The notes under the pieces were generated by a model. The model was not told the origin of the DNA. It did not search any database and was given only the letters and a program-made list of their open reading frames with translations. Of a stretch of DNA of 64,000 bases, positions 24,364 to 41,100 are shown one piece after another. The stretch covers positions 640,001-704,000 of the forward strand of contig OY820591.1 in NCBI GenBank assembly GCA_963555985.3. The letters run 5' to 3'. Origin of the DNA: Dehalococcoidia bacterium. GTDB lineage: Bacteria; Chloroflexota; Dehalococcoidia; Bin125. The first letter of the stretch is position 1. The number at the start of each line of letters is the position of its first letter. A program made the translations under genes and the position numbers.

Positions 24364-24655
24364 GAGACCTGCGCGTAAATCCCCAATTCCGTCATTCCCG
24401 CGAACGCGGGAATCCATGCAGCGTCTCGAATGGCATCCGGACTCCCGCCTGCGGAGACCGTTGCGAAATCCCCACCTCCGTCATCCCCGCCCCAACAAGT
24501 TCCGTCATCCCCGCCCCAACAAACTCCGTCATACCCGCGCCCCGTCGCGGGTATCTCGCCGTGACCAGCACCCAACCCCCAAACCCCACCTCCCCTCTCC
24601 CCCCCTCCGCGGGGGGAGATGTCGCGTAGCGACAGAGGGGGGGACTCCCCAACCC
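24364..24655 (+). repeat. Mosaic repeat cluster (MITE ends, CGTC REPs, 24-bp tandem units, family B)
   Basis: GAGACCTGCGCG end, REP 24390-24415, CCGTCATCCCCGCCCCAACAA x2, REP 24526-24556, family B 24594-24643. Confidence 0.85.
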
Positions 24656-24750
24656 TCAGTCAACCACGACACACCCCCAAATTACCCACCCGAACACCCA
24701 TCCATATAAGATCAAGTGTCCTTCATTGAGCAAGAGAGGAACCCGGACCC

Positions 24751-25113
24751 ATGCCCTTCAACTACACCTACCAGTCCGCCATGAACGGCGTCGGCGAGCT
24801 CGCCTTCTGCAAGCGCGAACCCGGCTACGTCCGCGCCCAAGCCTTCGCCATCCTGCGCCGCGAACTCTCCCCGGCCAACCCCAAGAGCCGCGAGATCCAC
24901 CACGCGCTCGGCATCGAACCCCACCCCGAGCCCGCGCCCCGCCCCAACCACTCTCACCTGCCCGAAGCGCCGCTCACCCCCGAGCAGCAGAAGGACTTCC
25001 ACCTCAACCCGATCTTCCAAGTCTACGACGAGGTGATGGCGCTCGTGCACGGGGACGACGTCCCCTTCGGCGAAGACGAAGAAAGCACGGAGGAAGAGGA
25101 TGAGCCTCAGTAA
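24751..25113 (+). CDS. Small protein upstream of terminase (putative terminase small subunit-like)
   Basis: GAGAGGA RBS; overlaps terL start; paralog at 37618-37833 shares RELSPANPKSREI. Confidence 0.7.
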   Translation: MPFNYTYQSAMNGVGELAFCKREPGYVRAQAFAILRRELSPANPKSREIHHALGIEPHPEPAPRPNHSHLPEAPLTPEQQKDFHLNPIFQVYDEVMALVHGDDVPFGEDEESTEEEDEPQ

Positions 25114-26518
25114 TACCCCTGCCTCGAAGCGGTTGAACCGAGCGTTCGACCGCTTCCACGACGCCCGCGATTTTTTTCCGACGGACAGACAGCGCGAGCT
25201 CTATAGCGCAGTCGCTACCGTGCCTAACCCCGGCCTCGCTCTGGTCGGGTACGGCGGCGCCATGGGCGGCGGCAAGACGCGAGCGCTGGTCGAACTCGCG
25301 ATCGACGCCGCCTTGTTCTACCCGGGCAACGACATCCTGATCGGGCGAGACGCCTACACCAATCTCGCCACCACCACGATGCGCGAGTTTGACCGCCATT
25401 GTCCGTCGGAACTGGTTGTCGCCCGACGACAGAGCCCGACCCATTCCGCCGCCCTGCGAATGCCGCACTGGCCCGACGGGGTCGTCTCCACCGTCCACTT
25501 CCGCCACCTCTCCGACTGGACCGGCCTCGGCTCCCAGCAGTACGGCACCGTGCTGATCGACGAAGCCGGCGAAGTGGCCGAAGAAGCCGCCCAGATGCTG
25601 CTCACTCGCCTCAGACACCCGGCCCAGCCCCAGCGCTGGTTCGTGGCCGCCTCCAACCCCCACCCGGGCTGGTTCGAGCGCTGGTTCGTCCAACGCGAAC
25701 TGAACAAAGCTGAACTGGAGCACGCCGGCGGACAAGCCCGCTTCATCCCCGCCAAGATCGAGGACAACCCCCACCTGCCCGACAACTACGCCGAGCAGCA
25801 GCGCGCCCTGCTCCCGCCCGATTGGGTCGAACGCTTCATCGAAGGCCGCTTCGACGCCTTCGAGGGCCTGGTCTACCCCAAGTTCAACCCCAAACTGCAC
25901 CTCTGGGATAAGCGCCTGCCCAGCTTCGAGCGCTACCTCGGCGGCCTCGACTTCGGCGCTCAGACCGAACAAGCCCACTACACCGCCGGCATCGTCGCCG
26001 GCCTCACTACCCGCTACGCCGTCTGCGGACCCAACGTCTTGATCCGCCTGGCCGAGTTCGAGGACAGAGGCCCCGGCGTCACCCAGCGGCTCGAACAGTG
26101 GATGCTCCAGTGCCGCCGGCGCTTCGGCTCAATCAGTTGGAACGCCGACCGCACACAGTCCGCCTGGATCGATCACCTTCACCGCCGCGGGCGCGACATC
26201 CGCCCCAGCCGGGGCGGGCCCGGCTCCGTCCACCAGGGCATCGGCCTCGTGCAAGAACGCCTTTCGAGCGACCCGCCGACCTCCTTCTACACCCCCGAGC
26301 TCGTCCAGTTCCCGCGCCGCATGAGGGAGTACCAGTGGCGAGACCCCCGCGCCGCCAACCCCCAACCCCGGGACCGCGACGACGACCTCCTCGACGCCGA
26401 CCGCTACTGCCACGAGCTGGCCCAACCCCAACTCGAACCGCCAACCACCCGGATCGAGTTCTTCCACCTCCCGCCGCTCGACCGCGGCCGCATCGCCAGC
26501 ATGAGAAATCAGCTCTAA
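25100..26518 (+). CDS. Phage-type terminase large subunit
   Basis: Walker A YGGAMGGGKT, Walker B VLIDEA, motif III ASNP, DNPHLP..Y, nuclease GGLDFG and DDLLDADRY. Confidence 0.9.
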   Translation: MSLSNTPASKRLNRAFDRFHDARDFFPTDRQRELYSAVATVPNPGLALVGYGGAMGGGKTRALVELAIDAALFYPGNDILIGRDAYTNLATTTMREFDRHCPSELVVARRQSPTHSAALRMPHWPDGVVSTVHFRHLSDWTGLGSQQYGTVLIDEAGEVAEEAAQMLLTRLRHPAQPQRWFVAASNPHPGWFERWFVQRELNKAELEHAGGQARFIPAKIEDNPHLPDNYAEQQRALLPPDWVERFIEGRFDAFEGLVYPKFNPKLHLWDKRLPSFERYLGGLDFGAQTEQAHYTAGIVAGLTTRYAVCGPNVLIRLAEFEDRGPGVTQRLEQWMLQCRRRFGSISWNADRTQSAWIDHLHRRGRDIRPSRGGPGSVHQGIGLVQERLSSDPPTSFYTPELVQFPRRMREYQWRDPRAANPQPRDRDDDLLDADRYCHELAQPQLEPPTTRIEFFHLPPLDRGRIASMRNQL

Positions 26519-26537
26519 CCCATGCCCACCCACAATG

Positions 26538-26719
26538 CCGTCATCCCCGCCCCCAAGAATCTCCCCCTCAAGGGGGAGATGCCCCAACGGGGCAGAGGGG
26601 GTGAAACGCCACCCCCAGCACAAACGCCCCCAACCAACCTCCCCTCTCCCCCCCCTCTGCGGAGCCTGTCCCCGCGCACGCGGGGAGGGAGATGCCGCGC
26701 AGGCGGGGGACAGAGGGGG
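26538..26719 (+). repeat. Repeat cluster: truncated CGTC unit and two family B double hairpins
   Basis: CTCCCCCTCAAGGGGGAGATGCCCCAACGGGGCAGAGGGGG and a longer variant. Confidence 0.75.
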
Positions 26720-26764
26720 TCCGCCCACCCCCACCCCCTACGCTGAACCCAAAAGGAAGCGCCC

Positions 26765-27922: not shown

Positions 27923-27954
27923 GAACACGGGGGCAGGCCGCCAGAAAACATCGA

Positions 27955-27983
27955 TTGACAATCGCGAACGAAAACGGCAAGAT
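27955..27983 (+). promoter_or_regulatory. Sigma70-type promoter with no downstream sense CDS
   Basis: TTGACA-17 nt-CAAGAT; same architecture as 63171-63199. Confidence 0.55.
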
Positions 27984-27989
27984 GAGCGA

Positions 27990-28117
27990 CGAGGGCCGAC
28001 GCCTGCGCAGCGGGAATTGGTCCCGTCGCTGGAGGCGGCGAACGCAGGCTCCGTGTCGCGCCGCTGAGACCAAAGGGGCTCGAAGGTCAGCTTCTGCCAT
28101 TGCGGGGGCTGGCCTTC
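27990..28117 (+). ncRNA. Candidate structured RNA at the 3' end of DUF3800
   Basis: Nested stems GCCTGCG/CGCAGGC, CAGCG/CGCTG, GGGA/TCCC; hairpin GAAGGTCAGC/GCTGGCCTTC at 28082-28117. Confidence 0.4.
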
Positions 28118-28129
28118 ACTCTCCCACCA

Positions 28130-28858: not shown

Positions 28859-28867
28859 CTGCTGATC

Positions 28868-29395
28868 TCACCCCAGCAAGATCCGAACCCCCTGCTCATA
28901 CCCGTCCAGCGCACGAGCGCACAATTCCTCATCGCTCGCGCTCCCAATCGGATGATCCACCAACGCATACCGAAAATCCGCCAACCCCAGCGTCTTCGCA
29001 ATCATCCGCCCCGTCGGATCAAACGGATGCGTACACAGCACCAGGCTCGGCTTCCCGCTCTGCTCGAAGGTAATCCCGTCATGCACACTGCACGTCGAAC
29101 ACGAGCCTCAATCGCCCACCGCCGTAATCAGAAAGTCAACGTCGTTCGCGATCCGCTCCAACACCTGCGGCTCCGCGATCCGGCTCGCATTCAGCTTGCC
29201 CGTATCGACCACGACTTCGCACTCATGCCGTCGCACAAACTCCTCCGCCGTGAAGCGAAGCAGTCGGTCGGCGTTCACCTTCGCATTCGAGAACAGCCCA
29301 ATCCGCAAACCGCTGAGCGTCTCCAAACGCGGTGCGTGGCGAAAGCCCGTCGCAGCCGGCTCGCCGGTGGGGTCAAAGAGTTCGAGCGGCATCAA
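28868..29395 (-). CDS. UGSC-family selenoprotein (in-frame UGA at 29108-29110)
   Basis: Two ORF-track ORFs join in frame: TAVGD-U-GSCSTCSVHDG...G.PS; SECIS-like hairpin 3' of UGA. Confidence 0.88.
29075..29099 (-). promoter_or_regulatory. Putative bacterial SECIS hairpin
   Basis: UUCG-A-CGUGCA-GUG-UGCAUG-A-CGGG, apical G 20 nt after the UGA. Confidence 0.55.
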
Positions 29396-29437
29396 GCATC
29401 CTCTCCCTGGAAATCCGGCAAATCTGACCGGAGAACT

Positions 29438-30511
29438 CTAATCGCAGTCGATGCAAACGCCGATCGCCTTCGTCTGAAAGATCGAACCGCGACCCCGGCT
29501 CCACGACGGCAGAAACGCCGAGTGACCGCCCGCTTCGCCGCCCGCGACTACGATCAGAATGTCCTCCGGGCTGCGCCCGCGATGGAACCGCACCCCGTCC
29601 GCCCGCGTCGGCCCCCGACCGTCAATCGCCGGCGCAAGCCCGTCCTGACCCGCCGCCGACGACCACTTGCCCGCCCGCAGCATCTCCGTCCCGTCCCGCG
29701 CCGCGTGCTCGAACAGGTACTCCTGCACCTCCGCCCGCCCCCAACCGCCGGAGGCCGCAATCGCCGCGTGCTCCGGCGACATCACCACCAGCGATTGCCC
29801 GTCCGTCAAAGCCCCCAGCGAACCCATCGCATCCGCAAACGTGTCCAGCAGCCGCTCCGGATCGCTCGTGTAGTGGTTCTCAACGTTGTAGAAACCCGAA
29901 GCCGCAAACACTGTCACCGTGCTCACCTCCGCAGGAAACCCCAGCGACTCGTGCAACGGCTCCCAAGGGCTATGCAGGATGTTCTCCGCAATGCAAGCGC
30001 TGTACTTCCCCGGCCAGCCCGTCGTCGAACGGTCGGAGACCCCGGGAATCATCTGAAAGATGTTCATGATCACCAGCCGCACCGCCCGCCCAATCGTCGC
30101 GTTCGCCCGATTGCCCGGCCCGAACACGTTCACGCTCGCGTTCATCCCGATCTCATCGCGGATGTCGCCGGAGACCACCAGCACCGGAGCGGAGCCGCCC
30201 GTACTCGCGGTCGAACCGTGGAAGTTGTACTCGTCCTCGGTCAGACCCTCCAGCGCTGCCAGCACCGTCGGAAAATACTGCGGCAGGCAACCAGCCATCA
30301 CCGCGTTGACCGCTGCCGACTGCACGCTGCACTCCCGCCCCGTCGCCGGATGCCGTGCCACGATCTCCTCGGGCGGCCGCCCGGCCGCAGCCAGAAAGCG
30401 TTCGACCCGCTCACGAGCCGGCGGAACCACGGGCAAGCCGTCCGTCCAGCCCTGCTCGTAGCACCAGTCAATCGCGGAAAGTTCGTCGGTCAGCGTGTGT
30501 GTGGTGGTCAT
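29438..30511 (-). CDS. UGSC-associated conserved protein (GWTDGLPVVPP family)
   Basis: GWTDGLPVVPP, AVMAGC.P, GNRANATIGRA; C-terminal CIDC. Confidence 0.8.
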   Translation of the reverse strand: MTTTHTLTDELSAIDWCYEQGWTDGLPVVPPARERVERFLAAAGRPPEEIVARHPATGRECSVQSAAVNAVMAGCLPQYFPTVLAALEGLTEDEYNFHGSTASTGGSAPVLVVSGDIRDEIGMNASVNVFGPGNRANATIGRAVRLVIMNIFQMIPGVSDRSTTGWPGKYSACIAENILHSPWEPLHESLGFPAEVSTVTVFAASGFYNVENHYTSDPERLLDTFADAMGSLGALTDGQSLVVMSPEHAAIAASGGWGRAEVQEYLFEHAARDGTEMLRAGKWSSAAGQDGLAPAIDGRGPTRADGVRFHRGRSPEDILIVVAGGEAGGHSAFLPSWSRGRGSIFQTKAIGVCIDCD

Positions 30512-30565
30512 AGCCGCAGTCTAGGGCTTCCTCAAATCCGCCCGAAACGCGAATCCAAACCTCCC

Positions 30566-30613
30566 CTCTCCCCCCCTCTGCGGGGGGAGATGTCCCGTAG
30601 GGACAGAGGGGGG
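30566..30613 (+). repeat. Family B double-hairpin repeat
   Basis: Near-identical to 14481-14528. Confidence 0.85.
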
Positions 30614-30869
30614 CTCCTCTCCCTCTGAACAGATGCGATCGCGCGGTAACGGCGATGCCCTTGCCCCTCTGCCTTCGGCGTCTCCCCGCAAGGCAGGGCG
30701 GACTTTCGCAAAGCTCTCCCAATGCGGAGATCACTCGCCGAGCTCGCCGCAGCGGAGCGCCCGGCCCCCGCAGAGACGACGGAGGGCCGGCAAGCCAAGA
30801 GAGTAATCTGCGGGCAACGGAGCTCGCCGGGAGCGGGCGTGAGAGGGATGCGATGAAGGCGAGCGTGCG

Positions 30870-32543
30870 GTGAGCAGGCGGCCCGGCGCGCGCAGCGGGG
30901 ACTCTCCTGCCGGAATGGACCAGGATCGCCCCTTAGTCACCGGGCCGTCGCTTGGCCCCGTTCCCTATTACTGGGTCGCGGCGATCGTTGTCTGCGTTGG
31001 CACCTTCCTCGGTGTCATGGACAACACGATCACCAACATCGCCCTCCCGACCATGAAGGACGAGTTCGGGCGCCCGCTCGACGACGTGATCTGGGTAGCG
31101 CTCGCCTTCATCGTCGTCAGCACCGGCCTCTCCCTCACGATGGGACGCCTGGGCGACCTCTACGGCCGCAAGATGCTCTACACCTGGGGCTTCGTCGTCT
31201 TCACGGTCGCCACCTTCCTCTCCTCGATCTCCGGATCGCTGGAGGAACTCGTCGGCACGCGCGTGTTGCAGGCCGTCGGCGCCTCGATGACGATGGCGAA
31301 TGGCGCAGCAATCATCACCGCCGCCTTCCCGCCCTCGAAGCGCGGTACCGGCCTGGGCCTGATCGTCTCCACGGTCGGCGCCGGTGCGGCTGCGGGACCG
31401 ATTCTGGGCGGCGTGCTGATCGACCTACTGGACTGGCGCGCGATCTTCTGGACCCGTGTGCCCTTTGGCCTGCTCGCCGCCTTCCTCGCGTGGCGCTTCC
31501 TGACCGACGCGCCCAGCGAGCAGCGGCCCAAGGGTCTTGACATTCCCGGCTCCGTGTTGCTCTTCGGGATGTTGGCTTGCCTCACCTTCGGGATCAACCG
31601 CGCACGCGATCTCGGCCTGACCTCGACCACGGTCACGCTGGTGCTCGCAGCCGGGCTCGTGTTCATGGTCTGGTTCATCATCGTCGAGCGTCGCTCGCGC
31701 TCGCCGGTCGTCGATCTGGGTCTGTTCAAGGGGCGTGGATTCTCATTCGGAATCCTGGCGGCCATCTTGCAGTTCTTCGGCTTGAGTTTCACGTTCTATC
31801 TGATGCCCACGCTGCTTCAGGACGGGCGCGGCTTCAGCGCGACCCAGACCGCGATGATGATGATGCCGCTCTCGCTGATGATGCTGCTCTGGGCGCCGAT
31901 CTCGGGACGCTTATCCGACCGCTTTGGCTCGCGTCCGCTGACGACGGCGGGGATGGTGATCGTCTGCACCGGCCTGATCTTGCTCTCCCGCACCTCGGCC
32001 GACACCTCGCCGGTCGACTTCGCTATGCGGATGCTGCTGCTGGGCATCGGCACCTCAACCTTCAGTTCGCCGAACACATCGGTCATCATGTCTGCCGTGC
32101 CGCCGCAGCGGCTGGGGACGGCCTCGGCTTCGCAAACGACGGCGCGCACCTTTGGCAACGCCTTCGGCACCTCGGTCGCGGTCGCGGTGATGGCCTCGGT
32201 CGCGGCGAGCTTTGCGGCTGAGAACGGAGTCGCAGCAGACAGCGGCGAATCCGTCATCCAGGGATTCCGCACGGCGCTGCTCGTGGCTGCGCTCGTCGCC
32301 TCGCCCGCGATCCTGTTGTCCTTACTGGGCGGCCAGCGCGGCGTCCGCGTGGCTGCCGAGCGAGCCGCCGACAAGGCTGCCGAAGGCGTGCAGGTCGTGC
32401 GCGGGGCGATTGAGATCGAGGTCGCCCGAATGGTGCCGCTGTTCCGGGGTCAAAAGTCGGCGAACTACGGCAGGAACGGACGCAACGGTGTCGGCGCTCA
32501 GCAGTCGGTGAGCTCCGCACGGGCAAGGAAAGAGTTGTCGTGA
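30870..32543 (+). CDS. MFS transporter, DHA2/EmrB-like
   Basis: MDNTITNIALP, GRLGDLYGRK, 14-TM pattern; alternative start ATG 30915. Confidence 0.92.
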   Translation: MSRRPGARSGDSPAGMDQDRPLVTGPSLGPVPYYWVAAIVVCVGTFLGVMDNTITNIALPTMKDEFGRPLDDVIWVALAFIVVSTGLSLTMGRLGDLYGRKMLYTWGFVVFTVATFLSSISGSLEELVGTRVLQAVGASMTMANGAAIITAAFPPSKRGTGLGLIVSTVGAGAAAGPILGGVLIDLLDWRAIFWTRVPFGLLAAFLAWRFLTDAPSEQRPKGLDIPGSVLLFGMLACLTFGINRARDLGLTSTTVTLVLAAGLVFMVWFIIVERRSRSPVVDLGLFKGRGFSFGILAAILQFFGLSFTFYLMPTLLQDGRGFSATQTAMMMMPLSLMMLLWAPISGRLSDRFGSRPLTTAGMVIVCTGLILLSRTSADTSPVDFAMRMLLLGIGTSTFSSPNTSVIMSAVPPQRLGTASASQTTARTFGNAFGTSVAVAVMASVAASFAAENGVAADSGESVIQGFRTALLVAALVASPAILLSLLGGQRGVRVAAERAADKAAEGVQVVRGAIEIEVARMVPLFRGQKSANYGRNGRNGVGAQQSVSSARARKELS

Positions 32544-34009
32544 CGCATGTGATCGTGGTCGGAGCGGGCAATGCGGCATTGTGCGCGGCGCTGTCGGCGC
32601 GCGAGCATGGCGCTGATGTCACCGTGCTCGAAAAAGCGCCCGAAGCCGAGCGCGGTGGCAACACCTACTTCACCGGCGGCGGCTTCCGCTTTCCCTATTC
32701 GGGCATCGGCGACATCCTCGAACTGATCCCGGACCTCAGCGACGCAGAACAGGCGCGTGTCGATGTCGGCGCCTACCCCGCCAGCCGGTTCCGCGACGAT
32801 CTCGCCCGCGTCACCGACGGTCTGATCGACGACGGCATGGCCTCAACCCTCGTCCGCGAAGCTGCGCCCACCATCCGCTGGCTGCGAGAACGCGGCGTCC
32901 GCTTCGCCTTAATGACCGGACGCCAAGCGAACGAAGTCGGCGGCAAGCTGGTCTTCTACGGTGGCCTCACTGTGGAGGCGGTCGGCGCTGGCAAGGGCCT
33001 CTCCGACCAGGAATTCGCCGCCGCCGAACGCGACGGCGTGCAGATCCGCTACGGAGCAAAGGTTGTGGACTTACTCCGCCAAGGGCGGCGCATCGCCGGC
33101 GTCAGCTTCTGGACCGACGACGAGGAAGAAGAACTGGAAGCGGACGCCGTCATCCTCGCTGCGGGCGGCTTCGAAGCCAACACCGAAATGCGCACCCGCT
33201 ACCTGGGCCCCGGCTGGGACATGGCCAAGGTGCGCGGTACCCGCTTCAACACCGGCGACGCCATTCGCGCCGCAATCGCTGCGGGCGCCCAGCCCTTCGG
33301 CAACTGGTCGGGCGCGCACGCCGTCGCCTGGGACTTGAACGCGCCCCCCACCGGAAATCGAGTCGTCGCCGACCTCTATCAGAAGCACTCATACCCCTAC
33401 GGCCTGATCGTCAATCTCAACGGCGAGCGCTTCGTGGACGAGGGCGCCGACCTGCGCAACTACACCTACGCCCGCTACGGACGCGCGATCCTCGAACAGC
33501 CCCAGCGCGTCGCCTTCCAACTGTTCGATCAGCGAACGGCGCATCTACTCCGCGACGAGTACCACGTTCGCCAGGTCACGATGGCGCAGGCCGATACGAT
33601 TGCCGACCTCGCCGAGGCGCTGGGCGTTGATGTGGTCGGGCTAAAGCAAACGATCGCCGAGTACAACGCAGCTTGCGTTGGAGGCGAGTTCAATCCATCG
33701 GCGCTCGACGGTGTGCGCACCGAGGGAATCACGCCGCCCAAGTCGAACTGGGCCTTGCCCGTTGATTCCCCACCGTATCTCGGTTTCGCCGTCACCTGCG
33801 GGATCACGTTCACCTTCGGCGGCCTCAAAATCACTCCGCGCAGCGGCCAAGTGCTCGACACCGAAGACCGTCCCATGCCCGGTCTCTACGCCGCCGGAGA
33901 ACTGGTCGGCGGACTGTTCTATAACAACTACGCGGGCGGTTCCGGATTGATGGCCGGCAGCGTCTTCGGCCGGATCGCGGGAAGGAGCGCAGCACGTGCA
34001 AATACCTGA
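32540..34009 (+). CDS. tcuA: FAD-dependent tricarballylate dehydrogenase-like flavoprotein
   Basis: VVGAGNAALCAA, GGFEAN.EMR.RYLGPGWD.AKVRG, GITFTFGG, NYAGGSGL. Confidence 0.85.
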   Translation: MTHVIVVGAGNAALCAALSAREHGADVTVLEKAPEAERGGNTYFTGGGFRFPYSGIGDILELIPDLSDAEQARVDVGAYPASRFRDDLARVTDGLIDDGMASTLVREAAPTIRWLRERGVRFALMTGRQANEVGGKLVFYGGLTVEAVGAGKGLSDQEFAAAERDGVQIRYGAKVVDLLRQGRRIAGVSFWTDDEEEELEADAVILAAGGFEANTEMRTRYLGPGWDMAKVRGTRFNTGDAIRAAIAAGAQPFGNWSGAHAVAWDLNAPPTGNRVVADLYQKHSYPYGLIVNLNGERFVDEGADLRNYTYARYGRAILEQPQRVAFQLFDQRTAHLLRDEYHVRQVTMAQADTIADLAEALGVDVVGLKQTIAEYNAACVGGEFNPSALDGVRTEGITPPKSNWALPVDSPPYLGFAVTCGITFTFGGLKITPRSGQVLDTEDRPMPGLYAAGELVGGLFYNNYAGGSGLMAGSVFGRIAGRSAARANT

Positions 34010-34736
34010 CCGAGCCCAAGCGCTGCTGCGAGAGATCATCGATTCGCCGGACGTGCTGATGACCCCGGCCCTGCGTCGCATCGCGCGGCGTGAGGCGCGC
34101 GCCTTGAAATCCGCGACCGGCGAAGAGGTGTTGGAGCTCTGCAATGAACTGATCGAGCACGGCGGCAGCGGCCGGGTGCGCCGAGCCGAACACGGCCCCG
34201 CCTACGAATCCAGAATGGTGGCGTTCGAACTGGGCGCAATGCACCGTGAGGCGTTCGCCCTCTTGAACTGGCGCGAACTGGAGCGCCTGGGCCGCACCCT
34301 AGACGGCTGGGCCTCTGTCGATCACTTCGCCCGCAAACTCAGCGGCCCCGCCTGGCAGCTCGGCCAGATCACCGACGCCCGCATCATGCGCTGGGCCACC
34401 TCCACCGACTTCTGGTGGAGACGGGCCGGGCTGGTCTCCACCATCGCTCTGAACGAGCGCCACTTAGGCCGCGGCGACGCCGCCCGCACCCTCACCATCT
34501 GCGAACTCTTCATCGACGACCGCGCCGATCTCCACGTCAAAGCCCTCAGCTGGGCGCTGCGCGAGCTCGCCTTGCGAGACCCCGAAGCAGTGATCGAGTT
34601 CCTCCTGCTCCGCGAAGACCGCCTGGCCCCGAGAGTCCGACGCGAGGTCCGAAACAAACTCACCACCGGTCACAAGCTGGCAAAGCCGTCCGAAGCAATG
34701 CAACGCCGGATGGCTGCGCGTCGATCTAGCGATTGA
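33996..34736 (+). CDS. DNA alkylation repair protein (AlkD-like)
   Basis: LDGWASVDHF, W.RRAGLVST, VKALSWALREL. Confidence 0.88.
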   Translation: MQIPDRAQALLREIIDSPDVLMTPALRRIARREARALKSATGEEVLELCNELIEHGGSGRVRRAEHGPAYESRMVAFELGAMHREAFALLNWRELERLGRTLDGWASVDHFARKLSGPAWQLGQITDARIMRWATSTDFWWRRAGLVSTIALNERHLGRGDAARTLTICELFIDDRADLHVKALSWALRELALRDPEAVIEFLLLREDRLAPRVRREVRNKLTTGHKLAKPSEAMQRRMAARRSSD

Positions 34737-35220
34737 GGATCAGGGAAACGCTCAGTGGATCGTATGAAAGGTTGAGCTCGAAGTGTTGCAACACGTCTCG
34801 TCCCAGCAGCGAGGGCATTTCCCAATACGACTGCCCTCGTCGGAGTCTTCTCACTGGTTCCGCGACCAGGATCGGTTGGGCAAAGTGATACGCTTCGCCG
34901 TCCGCGTCGGTGAACCCTAGACCGACGCGTTGGACGAGACATCGCAGGGTGGCGTTGCCGAGGCCGGTCACACTGACCGCATCGCGGCGCTGATTGATCT
35001 GAGGATCTTCGTCCCAAACGCCAAGCAACACGCGGCCTGCTTCCGATTGCAAGATGGTGTAGTCCGCGCCCGTATCGATCATGAAGGAGTGTTCGAGCCG
35101 CTGTCGGCCAAGCATCACACGGACGCGGATATACGGCGCGGATAGAGCAGACAGTGTGGGGTGTGGCGCGACACCGGTGGGGTGAAAGTACCCGGGTAGG
35201 CGGCGTCTCACAGCGCCCAC
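34726..35220 (-). CDS. Retropepsin-like aspartic protease
   Basis: FMIDTGADYT and LLGRDVL. Confidence 0.8.
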   Translation of the reverse strand: MGAVRRRLPGYFHPTGVAPHPTLSALSAPYIRVRVMLGRQRLEHSFMIDTGADYTILQSEAGRVLLGVWDEDPQINQRRDAVSVTGLGNATLRCLVQRVGLGFTDADGEAYHFAQPILVAEPVRRLRRGQSYWEMPSLLGRDVLQHFELNLSYDPLSVSLILNR

Positions 35221-35516
35221 GCAGTGCCGGGTTCTCGCTGACCATGAAAGAGCGCGGCAGCGCGTTGAATCTCAGGCAACGACATGAGCAACTGATGCAA
35301 CTCCTCAGGATCGGAACAGCCGCAGACTCTCTTGCCGCCGTCGTAGACGACGACCATTTGGCCGGGAAAACGCTCGAACAGCTCGAGTTCGTGCGCCAGG
35401 AAATACTCCAGATTGGCTTGACTCTCGCGCGTGATCGCGCGGCTGTCTTCGTAATCCGGATCAGACGGCTCCAGCTGGCGAATCTCGAATGGGATCGGTT
35501 CCACTGCTTCGGACAT
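35208..35516 (-). CDS. Small DUF5678-like protein
   Basis: YFLAHELELFERFPGQMVVVYDG; overlaps protease start. Confidence 0.6.
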   Translation of the reverse strand: MSEAVEPIPFEIRQLEPSDPDYEDSRAITRESQANLEYFLAHELELFERFPGQMVVVYDGGKRVCGCSDPEELHQLLMSLPEIQRAAALFHGQREPGTAWAL

Positions 35517-35546
35517 GATCGACTCCGAGCTCTCAGCCTAGCGAGC

Positions 35547-37100
35547 TCAGATGCATGTCGGCCAACTGGCCAACTCCTTCGTTTCACCTCGTCTGGGAGG
35601 CGTCACCGGGAACCGCTGCACCGCCTCCAGCAACCAACTGCGCGTATCCGCCGGATCAATGATCTCATCCAGATTCATGATGCCGGCGGCGCCCCATGGC
35701 TCATGGCCCAAAGTCCATTCAGCGATCAGGCGCTGACGTTCGGCGTCGGGGTCGGCAGCGTTGGCAATGTCTCGCGCGTGCACGACGTTGACGCCGACGC
35801 CTGGGTCCATGAACGAGATCTCCGCCCCCGGCCAGGCGGTGACCAGGGAGTTATCCATGCTGTTGCCCGAGAGCGAGAAGTAGGCCAGCCCGAATGCTTT
35901 GCGCAGCACGACGGTCATGCGCGGGACGGTCATCAGCGCAAGCGCCTCCATGAACATGATCGCTTTATGCAGCAGCCGCGCATGTTCGGGCTGAGAGCCG
36001 ACGATGAAGCCGGGCACGTCCTGCAACCAGATCGTGGGGATGTTGAAGGCCTCGCACATGCAGACGAACTGCGTGCCCTTGTCGCAGGTGTTGGGGTCGA
36101 GCGCGCCGGCGTTGAACATCGGATTGCTGGCGAGAATGCCGACCGTCTGTCCGCCGATCCGCGCAAGCGCCGTGATCAAACTGCGACCGAAACGCGGCTT
36201 GAGTTCAAGCATCTCTCCGTCATCGACCAGCCGCGTGATCACGCGGTGCATGTCGTAGGCGCGCTGACGGCGAGTGGGTACGAGGTTGGCAATGGCCGGA
36301 TCGTGCTCGGCGTAGTCGTAGCCCGCGCGGATTGGAGGCGTTTCCCAACAGTTGGAGGGCATGTAGGAGAGGAACGACTTGATCTGCTCGATCGCTTCGT
36401 CTTCCGTGTCCGCCGATACGTCGATCTGGCCCGTGAGGTCCAGATGGATGTCGACGCCGCCGAGCTCCTGCAATGTGATCAGCTCGCCGGTGGCGATCTC
36501 GATCACACGCGGCGAAGAGACGTTGAGCGCCGAGCCTCGTACCTGGACGGTGAAGTCGGAATAGGCGCTGTGGAAGCTGGAACCGCCAAAGGACTCGCCC
36601 ACGATGGCGGTGGCCATCGGAATCCGCCGCCGCCGCCGGGCGGACTCGATGCCCGGCGGGATCTTGCTGAAACCTTCAGAGCCAAGAGCGTCGGGCAAGC
36701 GCGCGCCGCCGGTCTCGCCGAAGTAGACGTACGGCACGCCCTGCTTGAGCGCCTGCTCGTAGATCCGCTTCATCCGCTTGCCGCCCACGACCGAGGAGGA
36801 GCCATGCAGCACGGTCACGTCGTCGCCGCAGCCGGTGGCGGGCCGGCCGTCGATTTTGCCCCAACCGCCAATCTTGCCGTCGCCGGGCGTACGGTCGCGG
36901 ACATCGGGGACCTCGGAGAAGGCAAAGGTGCCGATCTCGCGGAAGCTGCCGGGGTCGAAGAGCTTGTCAAGCCGCTCGCGGATCGTCATCCGCCCCTTCG
37001 CGTGCTGGCGAGCGATCCGCTCGGGCGAACCCATCTCGGAGACGATCTTCTGCCGCCGCATGAGGAGGTCTTCACGGATCGCTTGGGGTGACAGTGGCAT
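35547..37100 (-). CDS. Acyl-CoA carboxylase carboxyltransferase subunit
   Basis: GRMTIRERL, LQDVPGFIVG, DEIIDPADTR. Confidence 0.93.
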   Translation of the reverse strand: MPLSPQAIREDLLMRRQKIVSEMGSPERIARQHAKGRMTIRERLDKLFDPGSFREIGTFAFSEVPDVRDRTPGDGKIGGWGKIDGRPATGCGDDVTVLHGSSSVVGGKRMKRIYEQALKQGVPYVYFGETGGARLPDALGSEGFSKIPPGIESARRRRRIPMATAIVGESFGGSSFHSAYSDFTVQVRGSALNVSSPRVIEIATGELITLQELGGVDIHLDLTGQIDVSADTEDEAIEQIKSFLSYMPSNCWETPPIRAGYDYAEHDPAIANLVPTRRQRAYDMHRVITRLVDDGEMLELKPRFGRSLITALARIGGQTVGILASNPMFNAGALDPNTCDKGTQFVCMCEAFNIPTIWLQDVPGFIVGSQPEHARLLHKAIMFMEALALMTVPRMTVVLRKAFGLAYFSLSGNSMDNSLVTAWPGAEISFMDPGVGVNVVHARDIANAADPDAERQRLIAEWTLGHEPWGAAGIMNLDEIIDPADTRSWLLEAVQRFPVTPPRRGETKELASWPTCI

Positions 37101-37340
37101 CGAACGCTCCCTCTTGCAGATTGCAGGCCGAGTCTAGGGGCGGCTTTACCGCTTGGGACAGCGAGCAGCGATGGCCTGTTGGCGTGGGTTGGGCGAGCGC
37201 TGTTCGGGGGAGAGATTGTTCGGCGTGCGATGGGTGGATAGCGGAAATTTTTTCGGGCGAGTCTGGTGGAGGAAACCCAGTGTTTTACGGGAGATCGTGT
37301 GATCTGGGTGGTAGGCGGTGGTTAGTCCTGGAAAGCCTGG

Positions 37341-37436
37341 GTGTTTCGATTCCGATCGAATTTGTTTCATTTTGTTTCATTTTGTTTCGCCTTGTTTCGC
37401 TTTGTTCGGGTCTGGTCGGCGCCGTTCGGGTCTGGT
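37341..37436. repeat. 10-bp-period tandem array
   Basis: TTTGTTTCAT x2, TTTGTTTCGC, CTTGTTTCGC, TTTGTTCGGG; GTTCGGGTCTGGT x2 at 20-bp spacing. Confidence 0.8.
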
Positions 37437-37468
37437 TTGATGGTGTCGGGAGCGGGTTCCCGCGTTCG

Positions 37469-37632
37469 GAGGCCTTTGCGAAAGCCCAGCTTGTGCGGCT
37501 AATGCCTTGGAGGAGCGGATCGCGCGATGGGAGGTCGGTGGTACGACCAGATTGGGAGTGACTTCACACTTGGTTGCTTCGAGATTCCCGCCTGCGCGGG
37601 AATGACGGAAACGGGAGTTATGCATCGGTCTC
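37469..37632. mobile_element. 164-bp MITE (copy 1)
   Basis: Imperfect TIRs GAGGCCTTTGCGAAA / rc GAGACCGATGCATAA; ~110-bp interior shared with 62490-62652; internal REP. Confidence 0.75.
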
Positions 37633-37833
37633 CGCGAGCGGAGCTTCGGGGAACTTGGTGGGGGGTTCGAGGCCGAGGACGTGGCGGATCTCTCTGCTCT
37701 TGGGGTTGGCGGGGGAGAGTTCTCGGAGCAGGGTGTTGAGCGCGTTGACGCGGGTGTAGGCGTGTTCGTTGGAGTTGGCGATCTGGGCGACTTCGGTCAT
37801 GACGTCGCGGTAGCTGTAGGGGAAGGGAGTCAT
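37618..37833 (-). CDS. Paralog of 24751 small protein, truncated by MITE
   Basis: PF.Y.Y...M..V...A...RELSPANPKSREI.H.LG.EP..PEAPL; last codons and TAA lie in the MITE end; GAAAGGA RBS. Confidence 0.7.
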   Translation of the reverse strand: MTPFPYSYRDVMTEVAQIANSNEHAYTRVNALNTLLRELSPANPKSREIRHVLGLEPPTKFPEAPLAETDA

Positions 37834-37879
37834 TGGGGTAGTTCCTTTCCGTTGGAACTGGCGTTTGGCGTAGATGGCC

Positions 37880-38146
37880 GATTATATATGGATGGATGTT
37901 CGGGTAGGTAATTTTGGTGTGTGTTGTGGTTGGCAGAGGGTTGGGTGCTGGTCACGGCGAGATACCCGCGACGGGGCGCGGGTATGACGGAACTTGTTTG
38001 GGGCGGGTATGCCAGGGAGAGGCGGACCCCCCTCTCTGTCGCTGCGCGACATCTCCCCCCGCAGTGCGGGGGGAGAGAGGATCGGGACTTCTGCAAACGT
38101 CTCCCTGCGCGGGAATGACGGATATGGGGATTTTGCACAGGTCTTC
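37880..38146 (-). repeat. Leader/repeat cluster homologous to 24500-24710
   Basis: 53-nt identity 37938-37990 vs 24526-24578; family B at 38026-38078; MITE-end/REP at 38085-38146. Confidence 0.85.
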
Positions 38147-38163
38147 AATAGCGTGAGCAGACA

Positions 38164-41100
38164 CTACGGTAGCTGGATTTGGATCGTCTCGCTTGTGGCG
38201 GTTCGTAAGAGCCAGGCTTCCGAGACTGTGATTCCGACTGAATGCAGCATCTGTGCATAGGTTTGGAGTTGGGCTTCGTAGCCGCGCAGACGGTCTGCTC
38301 GAAGCTCATGATCCGACTTGTAATCGACCAGTACCCAGCGATCGGACTTGCGGAACAACAGATCGGCGATCCCTTCGGTGATGGTCGTAGTGTCCGTGTC
38401 GTCACTCTGAATTGTTGTCAGCGGCAGTTCTCGATGGACTTCGTCGGCGCTTCGGGCTCGTTCTATGAGTTCGCTCGCCAGCGCTCGTCGCACATGCGCC
38501 AGCACTTCGTGCGGGGGGATTCCATGCGCTGCGCAGATCCGCCGCGTTCGCTCTTCCGTGAGCGCGTGGTCGTCGAAATGGGCAAGCTCCATCGCGGCGT
38601 GGATTGCGGTACCAATGGCCAGCGGGTCAGAGCGCGGCGGCAGGCCGGCATCGCTTTCGTCTAGCTCTTCGCCGGGTGACTCTCTTGTCCACTTCGCAAG
38701 ATCGTCGGCGAGACCGGAGGGTGTTCGAGCCACCGTGCGCGGATCACCCTTGACGAGTGCATCTTCGCGGAGTCGGCGCCACTGCTGAGTCAACTCCGCA
38801 TGAGCAACCGGCGCCTCAGACTGCGGCGGGGCATGAATCGCGTCGAACTGTTCGGGTGCGAATACCTGAATCGCTGGATCCGCGCCTCGCAATTGCCAGC
38901 CGGGAGCGGCTTCATCGAGGAAACCGCGGAAGCTATCGCTGTTGCCCATCGTCTGCGCCTGGAAGGAGGTCAGGATCAGCCAATCCCGCGCCCGCGTGCA
39001 GGCGACGTAGAGCATCCGCCGCGCTTCCGCGTCGGCGTAGGCTTCATCTCGGCGTTCTGCTTCGCCGATGCCGGGCGTCGCAAACTGCGTGTCTCGTCCC
39101 AGCCGATAGGCGGCCCGCCCGTTGGGCCGATCGACGATGAAGCGAGTCCCGCCGAAGGGCCGATCGGACAGCTTGGGCAGGATCACGATCGGAAACTCCA
39201 GTCCCTTCGCCTGGTGGATCGTGAGGATGCGAACCGCGTCGTCGTCGGCCTCGCTGGTTGGCGACTCCGATTCGGGCAAGTTCCGGCCTTGGCGCTGCGA
39301 GAGCCAACGGACGAAGGGCCGGAGAGTGTCGGCCTCGCTGTTCGCAAAGTCACTGGCGCGCTGTACCAACATCCGTAGGTTTGCCTGTCGCTCGGCGCTG
39401 TCTGCGCCGCTCAGCATCTGCGCCTCCAGCAAGCCGGACCGCCGAATCACATGCTCGACGATCTGCGGCAGCGGCAGATCACGCACTGAGATGCGCAGAT
39501 GGGCAAGTTCCTCGATCCGGTCGCGGAGCCGGCCGTCGTACGCGGATGGGATCGTTACAGGATCCAGCAGCAACGCAGCGCGCGAACGCTGATCGGCATG
39601 AACGAATTCGAACAGTTCCTGATCGGAAGCCGCGACCAGCGGCGACTTGAGCACGGCGAGCGCCGCCACCTCGTCGGTGGGATCGTCAAGAGCCTGCAAA
39701 AGATGCGCCGCCGCCCGGATTTCGGGCCGCTGGTAGAACCCCTGGCCGCTATCGAAGTGGTAGGGAATCCCCGCGTTATTGAGAGCATCGGTGTAGTGCG
39801 AGATGCCGGTTCGGGTGCGGATCAGGATGGCGATCTCGCGCAGTGCGGGCGGCCGTGCCGCGTCATCGCTTGAGATCCGGCCCAACTCTGAACGTCCTTC
39901 GATGAGATGTGCGATCAAGCGAGCAGTCAGCTCGCCCTCGTCTTTTCGCGCCGCATCAACGCGCGGATATTCCGACCGAGAGACGATGCTCACCACGCCG
40001 CCGCCGCTGTCTTGGCGGTGTGGTTCGATTGGCTGGAACGACGCTTGCGCGCGTGGATACGCAGGGTCGCTGCTGAGCACTGCGCTCAGGCTGCGATTCT
40101 GCCAGTCGGCCAGATTTGGGCGTGCGCGGAAGTTGACGCGCAGCCGCTCGATCGCGGCGGTTCCGGGCGCTGTCTCACTCGCGCGACGGAAGAGCTCTCG
40201 AACCTCTTCGTAGGTGTCGATATCCGCGCGCCGGAATCGGTAGACGGACTGCTTGGGATCACCGACTAGCACGAGCCGTCCCGGTCCGGGCTCAGCCTCG
40301 CGCCAGTTCGCCGTGTCTTCACGTGCGGTGAGCAAGAGTACGATCTCCGCCTGGAGCGGGTCCGTGTCCTGAAACTCGTCCACAAGGATGCTGTCGAAGC
40401 GCTTCCGAAGCGCTCTGCGGGCTCCGGGATGTTGCACCAGTAGATCGCGAGCTTCGAGCAGGAGGTCGTCATAGCTCAGGACGCCTTGCTGCCGCCGTTG
40501 GGCAGCGTCTTCGATGACGAGCTCTCGCAGTGCAGCGGTGAGCTCGGCCAAGGTGTTGTCACGGATTCGGCTGAGCAGCCCGTCGCGCCAATCGCGCAGG
40601 GCAAACCAGCGCTCACGGATCGCTGCGCGATCCGGATTATGGGCCGCGGGCGCGCCGCGAACATCGAGCGCTGCCAATCGCGGCCCAAGTTCATTCGGCT
40701 CGGTCTCACGGCAACGCCGGAGATGGGCAAGGATTCGCTCGGCTGCACTGGAATTCGAGGGCGAGTGACGACGGCAGGCAGCGACGATCTTCTCAGCTTC
40801 CTGCTCAGCGCGTTCGAGTTCATCATCGAGATTCGTCGGTTCTTCGCTTGCCGGAACCGGATCGAGATCGCGGTTGCGGGTCATGTGCTCAGCGGCGGCC
40901 TGGAGGTCTTGCAACTCGAGACCGAGACTGAGCGCGCGCTGAATCGCCGTCTGCGCTGATGCGCCGGCGTCGGACCAGAGCCACGCTCGCCAGGACTGCC
41001 GGAAGCGCAAGTCGGTCTGAAGCTGATCGAGCACGCGAAAGTTCGGATCGAGGCGGGCGTCGAGCGCGCACTCGCGCAGGAGCATCGCGGCAAAGGCGTG

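Follow-up and report, generated by a model that had tools for sequence, protein, structure and literature searches.

Terminases are known as virus-packaging enzymes, and in pac-type phages the pac site lies in or beside terS. The small gene studied here is best compared with the small terminases of the Terminase_2 (PF03592) or SPP1/SF6 G1P type. As in these systems, it is located directly upstream of terL and overlaps it; the helical hairpin of its product aligns with the core that follows their helix-turn-helix (..RLRAxELLGKxxGxF..), and its C-terminal part is predicted to contact the N-terminus of TerL. In contrast to them, the small protein has neither an N-terminal helix-turn-helix nor a Pfam or PHROG match, and its gene is scattered in roughly 30 copies, none of them in a phage and most lacking terL. 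Its partner resembles phage TerL (Terminase_3; the D6E enzyme, 5oe8 and 5oea) as a two-domain ATPase and RNase H-like nuclease with conserved acidic residues, but it is chromosomal, has five paralogs, is confined to one bacterial family and is accompanied by no detected portal, capsid or tail genes.

Three other systems offer partial parallels. SaPIs and PICIs are single-copy islands that span some 10-15 kb, encode an integrase besides replication and regulatory functions, and need the TerL of a helper phage. There, too, a TerS gene exists outside a complete phage and might divert a TerL; however, the unit described here measures 0.6-2.1 kb, is multicopy and brings its own terL in five copies. 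Pairs of IS elements and MITEs likewise consist of a few long, enzyme-encoding copies and many short ones that have the left end in common and use an internal, alternative right end, and their ends, like those of our cassettes, are better conserved than the interior. Unlike MITEs, the short cassettes keep an intact ORF under selection; the family lacks inverted repeats, target duplications and a known transposase, and its only enzyme is a terminase-like ATPase-nuclease. Finally, in RcGTA-type GTAs the host keeps packaging genes under purifying selection outside any prophage, as it does here, but in our case the searches turned up neither head nor portal genes, and the amplification of the terS-like gene is about 30-fold.

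We analyzed a 71-aa ORF in a 64,000-nucleotide stretch of DNA from a Dehalococcoidia bacterium (hereafter, the window). Our preferred reading, to which we assign a probability of roughly 0.55, is that this ORF is a truncated piece of a mobile-element-like terS/terL cassette family with non-autonomous derivatives. The features on which the analysis is built are as follows.

37618..37833, minus strand: truncated terS-like ORF, 71 aa (P0003), from ORF calling and tblastn
37505..37641, no strand: MITE-type repeat that abuts the 71-aa ORF and ends it after PEAPL, from genome coverage and end motif
37885..37914, minus strand: AT-rich conserved leader block of the truncated copy (TTACCT, 17 nt, TATATA), from pattern match
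37938..37991, minus strand: left-end hairpin block of the truncated copy, 54 nt, identical to 24525-24578, from exact match
24525..24578, plus strand: left-end hairpin block of the full-length copy, from exact match and folding
24679..24708, plus strand: conserved leader block of the full-length copy, from pattern match
24751..25113, plus strand: full-length terS-like gene, 120 aa (P0001), from ORF and paralogy
25100..26518, plus strand: terL-like gene, 472 aa (P0002), with ATPase and nuclease terminase fold, from Pfam, PHROG and fold
25209..25224, plus strand: internal site in terL (about codon 41, CAGTCGCTACCGTGCC), counterpart of the end nucleotide of 19 short cassettes, from alignment
26519..26533, plus strand: right boundary of the long unit, from comparison of five long copies

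The truncated ORF and the full-length copy in the window

The 71-aa ORF has a GC content of 0.61, 0.44 and 0.83 at the three codon positions, which is a coding-type profile. A tblastn search located its paralog at 24754-24975 on the plus strand, where residues 3-66 are 47% identical (E 2.3e-15) and both copies have RELSPANPKSREI; this confirms the initial annotation, which had described a diverged paralog with an identical stretch on the opposite strand. The annotation was also right that a MITE end cuts the ORF after PEAPL. Homology to the small-gene family ends at this point (about 37636), and the last codons and the stop come from the repeat, which is present in at least 30 genome copies and has a sharp family edge at 37641, where coverage falls from 30 to 3. 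The repeat carries a TTTCCGTCATTCCCGCGCAGGCGGGAATC end, and the IS30-like element of this genome has an end of this type on its right. A 366-nt contig assembled from public reads spans 37590-37955 with no differences.

P0003 retains the N-terminal helical core but has lost the C-terminal helix predicted to dock on TerL, along with the acidic tail, and its cassette no longer has a right end. Without the docking helix, P0003 cannot be a working adaptor: a MITE has cut this copy, which can no longer serve TerL. Compared with the other copies, the ORF gave a dN/dS of 1.38 (27 pairs, about 60 codons), a value we set aside because strong codon bias compresses dS and because the copy fits the consensus of relatives from outside this genome. 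Most likely, then, the 71-aa ORF is a dead relic of the mobile-element-like terS/terL cassette family.

At the full-length copy, the start of the P0002 gene overlaps the stop of the P0001 gene (ATGA). P0002 matches Terminase_3 (27.6 bits, cut-off 23.2), Terminase_6N and PHROG_2 terL (E 5.8e-23); its best Foldseek match is the large terminase of phage D6E (5oea, E 2.6e-19), and the TerL family profile retrieved 5oe8 from the PDB at E 1.8e-11. A phmmer search of the PDB sequences with P0002 alone gave no hits. Residues G50-K59 together with D154 and E155 (Walker A and B) and the nuclease aspartates D284, D350 and D428-D434 are invariant in 29 TerL sequences. Profile and fold comparisons show a terminase fold, with predicted ATPase and RNase H-like nuclease domains whose catalytic residues are conserved. 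PADLOC assigned no family to P0001, P0002 or P0003.

The small gene lies directly upstream of terL, with the ATGA overlap, at 24751-25113 and in four other copies, while the copy at 37618-37833 and the 24 other short copies have no adjacent terL. The initial annotation had assumed a single TerL, served by all small proteins; with five intact terL-like genes, that part has to be abandoned.

Likeness to small terminases and predicted contact with TerL

We consider it moderately well supported that the small protein resembles a small terminase without the DNA-binding domain. A profile search of 1.84 billion representatives returned 37 hits at E <= 0.001; this profile was mixed, as it also contained the RLRAWEL-type sequences of relatives, and is no independent test for the family's own type. 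When 13 of the 37 hits were scanned with Pfam, four exceeded the Terminase_2 cut-off and three more matched below it. Aligning own-type with TerS-type sequences by hhalign gave a probability of 6% (E 0.006) with shallow alignments and of 57% (E 1e-4, 42 columns) with deeper ones; for subfamily C against the TerS-type alignment the values were 5.8% and E 0.0065. The profile of the relatives' small ORFs had three PDB hits, including the small terminases of SF6 (E 0.056) and Pam5 (E 0.26), while the own-type profile retrieved no terminase from the PDB. Pfam and PHROGs assigned no family to P0001 or P0003, and none of 164 Foldseek matches to the small-protein model reached E <= 0.001. The TerS likeness originally suggested is thus plausible from the profile and hhalign results, with no curated family behind it.

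The monomer model (mean pLDDT 68.8) begins directly with a helical hairpin at residues 7-38, and the N-terminal helix-turn-helix DNA-binding domain is absent from it. In canonical TerS proteins, the match begins at about residue 64, past the Pfam-matched N-terminal part. The small protein would then consist of a helical hairpin matching the oligomerization core of Terminase_2-type TerS, a proline-rich linker, an amphipathic C-terminal helix and an acidic tail, with the C-terminal helix docking on the N-terminal helix of the TerL-like ATPase-nuclease.

The docking comes from complex prediction. The full-length small protein and the TerL-like protein scored 0.69 together, against 0.01 for the best control; 116 of 157 solved complexes attain this mark, as do 2 of 215 mismatched pairs. 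At least 63% of the contacts agreed between runs, and the pLDDT of the partner was at least 54. The predicted interface joins residues 86-101 of the small protein to residues 8-23, 72-73, 102-105 and 121-122 of TerL. Full-length small proteins are therefore predicted to bind the TerL-like protein, in line with the earlier idea of adaptors, which fails for the truncated copy: P0003 ends before residues 86-101.

The dispersed cassettes, their ends and their proposed mobility

The 3.3-Mb genome contains 30 cassettes, comprising 5 with an intact terL-like gene, 24 with a terL stump and the truncated copy. By tblastn 28 of these loci were found, and a leader HMM added two loci of a third subfamily, which hhalign relates to the small-gene family with a probability of 84% (E 7e-6). 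The expanded family proposed at the outset thus extends far beyond two copies, and judging from these searches it appears to be dispersed and specific to this genome. The five units with intact terL are about 2.1 kb long and 88-97% identical in nucleotide sequence among themselves; the stump of the others is about 90 nt. A complete cassette begins with a REP/MITE-type hairpin, continues through a conserved leader of roughly 100 nt that contains a ribosome-binding site, and then carries an ORF of around 120 aa, followed by an overlapping terL-like gene or its stump. The 71-aa ORF represents the 5' two-thirds of one such cassette.

The small ORFs are maintained by selection. None of the 29 full-length ORFs is broken, and a comparison of 27 of them gives a dN/dS of about 0.4. 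Among the ORFs found by tblastn, 27 of 28 are open and every indel is in frame, for which the joint chance under random substitution is about 1e-7. The C-terminal modules of the small gene are mosaic among copies, and in an allelic contig with flanks about 98% identical the 3' half of the small ORF has been replaced.

The surroundings of the cassettes are metabolic or housekeeping genes. At 27 of the first 28 loci the downstream genes could be identified, and all are housekeeping genes with no phage gene among them. This bears on the earlier proposal of a co-regulated regulon, in which TerS-like adaptors serve one phage TerL beside dispersed phage structural genes. A leader common to all cassette copies and the predicted binding of TerL by full-length copies would fit such a regulon; the five terL genes, the 27 loci without a phage gene downstream, the lack of detected head genes and a truncated copy devoid of the docking helix do not, and we regard it as very improbable.

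The leader itself also invites another interpretation. The shared block reported as 53 nt is real but measures 54 nt, with 24525-24578 being the reverse complement of 37938-37991, and in the copy at 24525..24578 it folds into a hairpin with a 9-bp stem (ATACCCGCG/CGCGGGTAT; -11.2 kcal/mol as DNA, z -3.1). The second block, AAATTACCYACCCGAACAYCCATCCATATA, occurs exactly twice within the window, at 24679-24708 (+) and 37914-37885 (-), and is thus present in both leaders as claimed; its promoter character was not confirmed, as a strict sigma-70 consensus scan of both leaders gave no promoter-like site. A terminator scan of both leaders returned a single terminator-like site, on the plus strand at 37865-37881, within shuffle expectation. 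Searched for as a 21-nt motif with up to 2 mismatches allowed, the tail of the 54-nt block recurs at 56 genomic places, and 33 of these have no small gene beside them. Searching the whole genome with the leader HMM gave four further sites at E < 0.001, namely two cassettes, one site upstream of an M20 peptidase gene and one without an ORF.

What had been taken for leaders homogenized more recently than the ORFs is more plausibly a conserved end of the cassette, formed by a hairpin of REP/MITE type that also bounds the terL unit of another genus on the left. Jukes-Cantor distances among subfamily-B copies are 0.043 for the hairpin, 0.065 for the trailer and 0.248 for the leader, with an ORF dS of 0.246.

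On the right, 19 of the 24 stump cassettes stop at one identical nucleotide, after CAGTCCCTACCGTGCC, and the flanks beyond are unrelated. This shared end corresponds to a position inside terL of the long copies, a site that may also be written CAGTC(C/G)CTACCGTGCC. The similarity of the five long copies runs on for about 15 nt past the terL stop, as judged from the one whose flank differs. The 19 short copies agree exactly at both ends, and the family as a whole shows what is expected of a transposable element in this respect, namely many dispersed copies with conserved, defined ends in unrelated flanks.

Several searches yielded no further marks of transposition. No terminal inverted repeat or target-site duplication was seen in the 25-30 nt flanks of all copies, where nested MITEs blur the left boundary. 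No known transposase is located within the unit, whose genes are the terS-like and the terL-like gene only, and no Y1 transposase was found in the genome. Four runs of one study, mapped to 22500-39000 of the window, showed no empty or bridging site, in contigs that are short and break at repeats; the read-contig joints near cassettes all have sides of <30 nt inside MITEs. As no inverted repeat, target-site duplication, empty site or known transposase was found, it is from the pattern of the copies that we infer mobility.

One could ask whether the cassettes are passive passengers with functionless small ORFs, spread by the IS30-like transposase or by recombination among the MITEs, hundreds of which have ends in common with it. 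The IS30-like element, which has about 10 copies in the genome and a transposase located outside the cassettes, does carry on its right an end of the same type as the left-end hairpin (CCGTCATACCCGCG..CGCGGGTAT), and so do the MITEs at their ends; CCGTCATNCCCGC occurs 314 times in the genome, and the cassettes always lie in MITE-rich intergenic DNA. Given this likeness of the left hairpin, another enzyme could move the cassettes. Yet only the left end is MITE-like, and no matching inverted repeat was found for the common right end; the ORFs are kept open at a dN/dS of about 0.4; in another genus (g7) the terL unit starts from this left hairpin as well, with its right end at the terL stop; and the unrelated downstream flanks of the 19 short copies with the same end argue against spread by flanking homology. 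We therefore consider mere passengers improbable.

Returning to the preferred reading, the short cassettes would be non-autonomous derivatives that arose in a burst in one lineage, with modules recombining between copies. The most likely agent of their mobility would be the TerL-like enzyme of the long copies. We tentatively propose, as a possible though doubtful extension, that the terS/terL pair is a new kind of mobile element, in which a TerS-derived specificity subunit guides the ATPase-nuclease to the element's own ends and about 25 cassettes with the small gene alone are mobilized in trans. These ends would be the REP-type hairpin on the left and, on the right, a CTAxCCxTGCC-like site either within terL or at its stop. 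Should the spread be driven by the TerL-like enzyme, this would represent a new class of mobility enzyme, a viral packaging enzyme acting as the 'transposase' of a cellular element, and would connect the packaging nucleases of viruses concretely to transposases with an RNase H fold. Whichever reading holds, the family is a testable system that consists of a small protein, an enzyme and DNA with defined ends.

Relatives and the search for head genes

The terS/terL pair is found in one family only (14 of its 17 sampled genomes, and none of the 283 others in the class), where it is low-copy (1-4). A small TerS-like ORF lies directly upstream of terL at 6 of 11 loci in relatives, bearing out the expected linkage of the small gene to terL, and at 5 of these 11 loci the pair is syntenic with CoA-transferase genes. 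In G297, a genome of genus g7, a 2.4-kb terL unit occurs at two loci with 96% identity, beginning at the TCCGTCATTCC..GGAATC hairpin and ending at the terL stop. In relatives, this resembles vertical inheritance of a pair of host genes more than the behavior of an active transposon. We have on the one hand a minimal terS/terL pair on the bacterial chromosome, selected across one bacterial family without detectable head genes, and on the other a single lineage in which the cassette of the small subunit has reached about 30 times its number and bears the marks typical of a mobile element. Searches of the literature available to us brought up nothing on terminase cassettes of Chloroflexota that are orphan or multicopy, nor on mobile elements derived from terminases.

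The conservation of the pair raises the alternative of domesticated GTA-type packaging, in which the TerL proteins would be host-kept motors, the cassettes dispersed recognition modules, each an adaptor plus its own pac-like site, from which packaging of chromosomal DNA starts at many places, and the head genes located elsewhere and too diverged to be recognized. Purifying selection on the terL paralogs (dN/dS 0.10-0.28), retention in most genomes of the family and partial synteny in two genera speak for it, and if such a hidden GTA-like machine existed, it would begin packaging at the many places where cassettes lie. We nevertheless hold it to be unlikely, since the portal, capsid and prohead-protease families all stayed below cut-off in the genome and the leader HMM led only to two more cassettes, the M20 peptidase site and the site without an ORF.

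In detail, the portal families PF04860, PF05133, PF05136 and PF16510 gave nothing above cut-off in the genome; the same holds for the Mu portal family PF06074, which was silent in the control genomes too and is hence uninformative. The capsid families PF05065 and PF03864 and the prohead protease family PF04586 also gave nothing over cut-off in the genome, in a search that diverged genes could escape, and no head genes were found behind the shared leader when the genome was searched with the leader HMM. For annotation, 'phage terminase' genes of this kind should not count as evidence of a prophage.

One weak hit to PF05065 (Phage_capsid), at C1:1976379-1976696 (18.7 bits, below cut-off), was rejected as a capsid candidate. 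It falls on an ORF that matches nothing in Pfam or PHROGs, and the same databases assign none of its neighbors to a capsid, a portal or any other family of head genes. Close to it are a gene for an Amidase_2 protein matching phage endolysin families and one for a CoA-transferase.

The two copies in the window

The ORF under study, P0003, is a truncated terS-like frame lying in 65% GC DNA, and its GC content by codon position (0.61/0.44/0.83) has a coding-type profile. A tblastn search of the window with its product returned a single paralog, at 24754-24975 (+), with 47% identity over residues 3-66 (E 2.3e-15) and RELSPANPKSREI identical in both. This match falls in a full-length gene, P0001, adjoined by a terL-like gene, P0002, whose product matches Terminase_3 (27.6 bits, cut-off 23.2) and Terminase_6N in Pfam as well as PHROG_2, 'terminase large subunit' (E 5.8e-23).

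Small ORFs and terL-like gene of the window
24751..25113, + strand, full-length terS-like gene P0001 (120 aa), paralog of P0003
25100..26518, + strand, terL-like gene P0002 (472 aa), its start overlapping the P0001 stop (ATGA)
37618..37833, - strand, truncated terS-like ORF P0003 (71 aa), from the ORF call

The longest exact block common to the two leaders is 54 nt, not 53 as first described (24525-24578, the reverse complement of 37938-37991). The 30-nt leader pattern that the initial annotation called promoter-like has exactly two occurrences in the window, one 5' of each copy; its conservation holds, but its likeness to a promoter is not confirmed, as a strict sigma-70 consensus scan of both window leaders gave zero promoter-like sites. 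Homology of P0003 to the small-ORF family ends after PEAPL, and a repeat with its family edge at 37641, where genome-copy coverage drops from 30 to 3, supplies the final codons and the stop. The ORF, its diverged paralog, the common leader and the cut after PEAPL were thus all borne out by the ORF call, tblastn, the exact-block comparison and this repeat edge.

Neither copy sits inside a prophage. Copy 1 (P0001) is surrounded by genes for a carboxyltransferase, an acyl-CoA dehydrogenase, a fused CoA-transferase and a DUF3800 protein, and copy 2 (P0003) by a second carboxyltransferase gene and an AddAB-like helicase-nuclease pair. The carboxyltransferase paralogs lie upstream of copy 1 (22748-24328, +) and downstream of copy 2 (35547-37100, -), which may be chance. 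Between the carboxyltransferase gene and the truncating repeat, positions 37350-37400 hold a short array of tandem GTTTCATTTT/GTTTCGCCTT-like units. CoA-transferase family III is very abundant in the source genome (89 tblastn matches with one query), in some cases as fused doubles of 813-828 aa.

A family of thirty cassettes

We searched the source genome assembly (G000; 3.33 Mb, 11 contigs, 96% complete, 7.5% contamination) with P0001 by tblastn and found 28 loci. An HMM of the 100-nt leader recovered all 28 and gave two more strong matches (E 1.8e-17 and 2.2e-15), each preceding an ORF of 111-114 aa (P0165, P0166) of a third subfamily, C. This subfamily carries ..PPYIQHQATNALARILGLYDQ.. and is more TerS-like than the others; P0165 aligns with the small-ORF family at 84% probability (hhalign, E 7e-6).

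Subfamily-C cassettes, found solely via the leader HMM
C1:905706-906050, L070
C1:775613-775948, L071

The total is therefore 30 loci, including one on contig C9, far more than the two copies of the window. Nor is there one TerL for the family, as had been proposed: the genome holds five intact terL-like genes (472-473 aa, at 5/30 loci). Four of these five long units are 95-97% identical to one another at the nucleotide level, and the window's long copy is 88-89% identical to those four; mutual similarity among long copies stops about 15 nt past the terL stop. Two other cassettes retain 57-69 codons of terL, and both subfamily-C cassettes keep an N-terminal stump of about 55-60 codons. Nineteen short cassettes terminate at one identical nucleotide, after CAGTCCCTACCGTGCC, with unrelated sequence beyond. 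In the long copies this motif is internal to terL, at about codon 41 (25209-25224 in the window); therefore, the short form derives from the long one by 3' truncation and multiplied afterwards. One diverged cassette does not have the motif, and the P0003 cassette is cut earlier still than the 19 short copies. P0003 is thus a real paralog, but one relic among 30 cassettes. A lone CAGTCCCTACCGTGCC right-end motif, without a nearby small gene, was also seen at C1:1516180-1516195.

Each cassette begins with a hairpin block, TCCGTCATACCCGCGC.CCG.CGCGGGTATCTCGCCGTGACCAGCACCCAACC, which folds as single-stranded DNA into a 9-bp stem (-11.2 kcal/mol, z -3.1). A nested MITE (in some copies), the conserved leader with its AT-rich block and GGA-rich ribosome-binding site, the ORF, and terL or its stump follow in that order. 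In subfamily B conservation is much higher at the ends than inside: Jukes-Cantor distances are 0.043 (hairpin) and 0.065 (trailer), compared with 0.248 for the leader, with an ORF dS of 0.246. In the alignment, a tRNA-like sequence was spotted by eye about 150 nt 5' of one long copy's left hairpin (C1:1690375, -).

The small ORFs have been kept open. The frame is open in 27 of the 28 found by tblastn, with all length differences in frame; had substitutions fallen at random at the divergences observed, the joint chance of this would be about 1e-7. Both subfamily-C ORFs are open as well. Mean dN/dS is 0.41 in subfamily A (28 pairs) and 0.40 in subfamily B (171 pairs), and 0.10-0.28 among the terL paralogs (n=5). 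Towards its C-terminus the small protein is mosaic, with four or five alternative helix modules found in combination with either N-terminal type. The C9 cassette (C9:12029-12382) looks like an allelic or duplicated version of the locus at C1:421721-422086, with flanks about 98% identical. However, the 3' halves of the two small ORFs differ at 10-20 positions per 100 nt and by a 12-nt gap, and encode different C-terminal modules. Near-identical flanks around a replaced 3' half indicate that cassette copies exchange segments.

The TerL-like enzyme and its predicted small partner

The TerL-like family is well conserved, with at least 219 members in the databases at E <= 0.001 (8000 candidates scored); the named matches are a 'phage terminase large subunit' or a 'hypothetical protein' in Chloroflexota/Chloroflexi records. 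Walker A (GYGGAMGGGKTR), Walker B (D154 E155) and nuclease D284, D350 and D428-D434 are invariant in 29 aligned members. The family profile matches the D6E large terminase (E 1.8e-11), which is also the best match of the structural model (mean pLDDT 73.4; E 2.6e-19), followed by the Sf6, HK97 and T4 terminases.

Among 41 relatives the gene was present in 12 genomes, all of them in the window's own family (11/24 of that family when the window's genome is excluded). When the class was sampled evenly (301 genomes), 15 had it, at one to four copies each (14/17 in the family, 0/283 outside). At 5/11 relatives' loci, in two genera (g7 and g8), orthologous CoA-transferase genes come after terL, a synteny that argues for long vertical residence, tempered by how abundant CoA-transferases are. 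The g7 genome G297 has a 2,425-bp terL unit at two loci far apart, 96% identical to each other, which starts at a same-type hairpin (TCCGTCATTCCTGCGCAGGCAGGAATC) and finishes at the terL stop; therefore, the terS/terL unit duplicates as a discrete whole, with the same left-end type, in more than one genus. We favor, at a probability of roughly 55%, the reading that a minimal terS/terL module, which relatives keep at one to few copies, has expanded here in the manner of a mobile element.

The G297 small gene (179 aa, L066 4632-5171, +) is head-to-head with terL (4623-2965, -), and its product contains ..ERGYVQVRALDSLARLL.. and an acidic tail, DEDEPP. This terL belongs to a subfamily (also in G006, G018 and G233) with a low-complexity insert of about 60 aa near residue 305; the insert-bearing genes stay one open frame of 552-584 aa, 552 aa in G297. 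Some phage terminases are accompanied by HNH proteins; in G018, a 91-aa HNH endonuclease ORF (L028 7414-7686) lies about 1.3 kb upstream of a terL-like gene.

The TerS likeness proposed in the initial annotation is plausible. Single-sequence searches with the small protein gave no family in Pfam, PHROGs or PADLOC, and a word-based search matched seven clusters, all from the source genome's own contig. In relatives, a small ORF with the motif ..GIRxLA..ENVxLRAWELxGxxxGxF.. lies directly 5' of an orthologous terL (57-64% identical) at 6/11 loci. A profile of these ORFs gave three PDB matches in all, a designed repeat protein at the top, with the SF6 and Pam5 small terminases at E 0.056 and 0.26. 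The combined small-ORF profile found 37 proteins at E <= 0.001 among 1.84 billion representatives; of 13 scanned with Pfam, four passed the Terminase_2 cut-off and three matched below it, the profile aligning after the N-terminal HTH part in each case. Aligning 16 own-type with 19 TerS-type sequences gave a probability of 57% (hhalign, E 1e-4, 42 columns), but the own-type profile alone found no terminase in PDB. In the AlphaFold model (mean pLDDT 68.8, about 90 over residues 11-40), helices 7-19 and 25-38 form a hairpin, followed by a short helix, a linker rich in proline, and C-terminal helices 77-83 and 87-99; the model had no significant Foldseek match. We conclude with moderate confidence that the small protein is a reduced small terminase that keeps the helical core but has no DNA-binding domain.

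Complex prediction supports binding of the small protein to the TerL-like protein. With both alignments the score was 0.69, against 0.01 for the best of three controls; as a rough guide only, since own alignments were used, 116/157 solved complexes and 2/215 mismatched pairs reach this score. Runs agreed in at least 63% of contacts, with partner pLDDT of at least 54. The predicted interface joins the C-terminal helix of the small protein (86-101) to the TerL N-terminal helix (8-23) and residues 72-73, 102-105 and 121-122. The end of P0003 corresponds to P0001 residue 75; thus, P0003 lacks the entire predicted interface.

Downstream genes and the spread of the cassettes

The initial annotation suggested a dispersed phage regulon. 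We called the first downstream gene at the 28 tblastn-found loci with a GC3-based ORF heuristic, by which 23/28 are co-oriented with the cassette (one duplicate among the 28). Leaving out the C9 duplicate, 25 were scanned against Pfam and two were known from the window. Families were assigned to 24 of the 25, including leucyl aminopeptidase, RibD, sulfite reductase, a sigma-70 factor, NDK, thiolase, acyl-CoA dehydrogenases, MoaD-MoaE, inositol-phosphate enzymes and others, and no phage-family match occurred at the 27 loci. Outside cassettes, the leader HMM gave only two matches at E < 0.001, one before an M20 peptidase gene and one without an ORF. Such housekeeping genes and so few non-cassette leaders do not support the regulon, despite the shared leader, and we regard it as highly improbable.

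A hidden GTA-like packaging system is another candidate reading. Genome searches for Phage_portal, SPP1_portal, Phage_portal_2, P22_portal, Phage_capsid, Phage_cap_E and Peptidase_S78 gave nothing over cut-off, which speaks against such a system, although diverged genes could escape; Portal_Mu gave none either, but its control was silent too. We consider this system unlikely. The genome's sole weak Phage_capsid match (18.7 bits), an ORF with no Pfam or PHROG match, was set aside.

Passive spread by transposon machinery was suggested by the ends. No Y1 (IS200/RAYT) transposase was found in the genome. An IS30-like element (HTH_38 + rve, 338 aa) occurs at about 10 places by genome self-comparison, including C1:128521-129588, and its right end, ..CGCGGGAATGACGG, belongs to the type seen in the hairpin arms and MITE ends. 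Since the genome's hundreds of small hairpin repeats have this end in common, they are probably MITEs of the IS30-like element; CCGTCATNCCCGC occurs 314 times.

MITE ends in the window
24388-24402
37583-37632
38104-38144

The left-end tail motif has 56 genome sites, 33 of them off cassettes and most of these within a palindromic MITE of about 95 nt; therefore, the cassette left end could be a MITE end, either borrowed or targeted. The shared right end, however, lacks an inverted counterpart, and no target duplication was found, and we judge passive spread by the IS30-like/MITE machinery to be quite unlikely. For the favored mobile-element-like expansion, the sole enzyme encoded within the unit is the TerL-like ATPase-nuclease; that it mobilizes the short cassettes is possible, if doubtful. 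The listings and abstract openings from a full-text literature search contained nothing on such cassettes.

Also seen in several copies was a gene whose product, an HTH protein of roughly 260-300 aa, begins MSFPNFPNP (C1:1925625-1926536, 2572166-2572942 and 581132-581908; L061-L063). This gene matches no transposase family, and its upstream DNA is only weakly like the cassette leader (nhmmer E 0.5-1).
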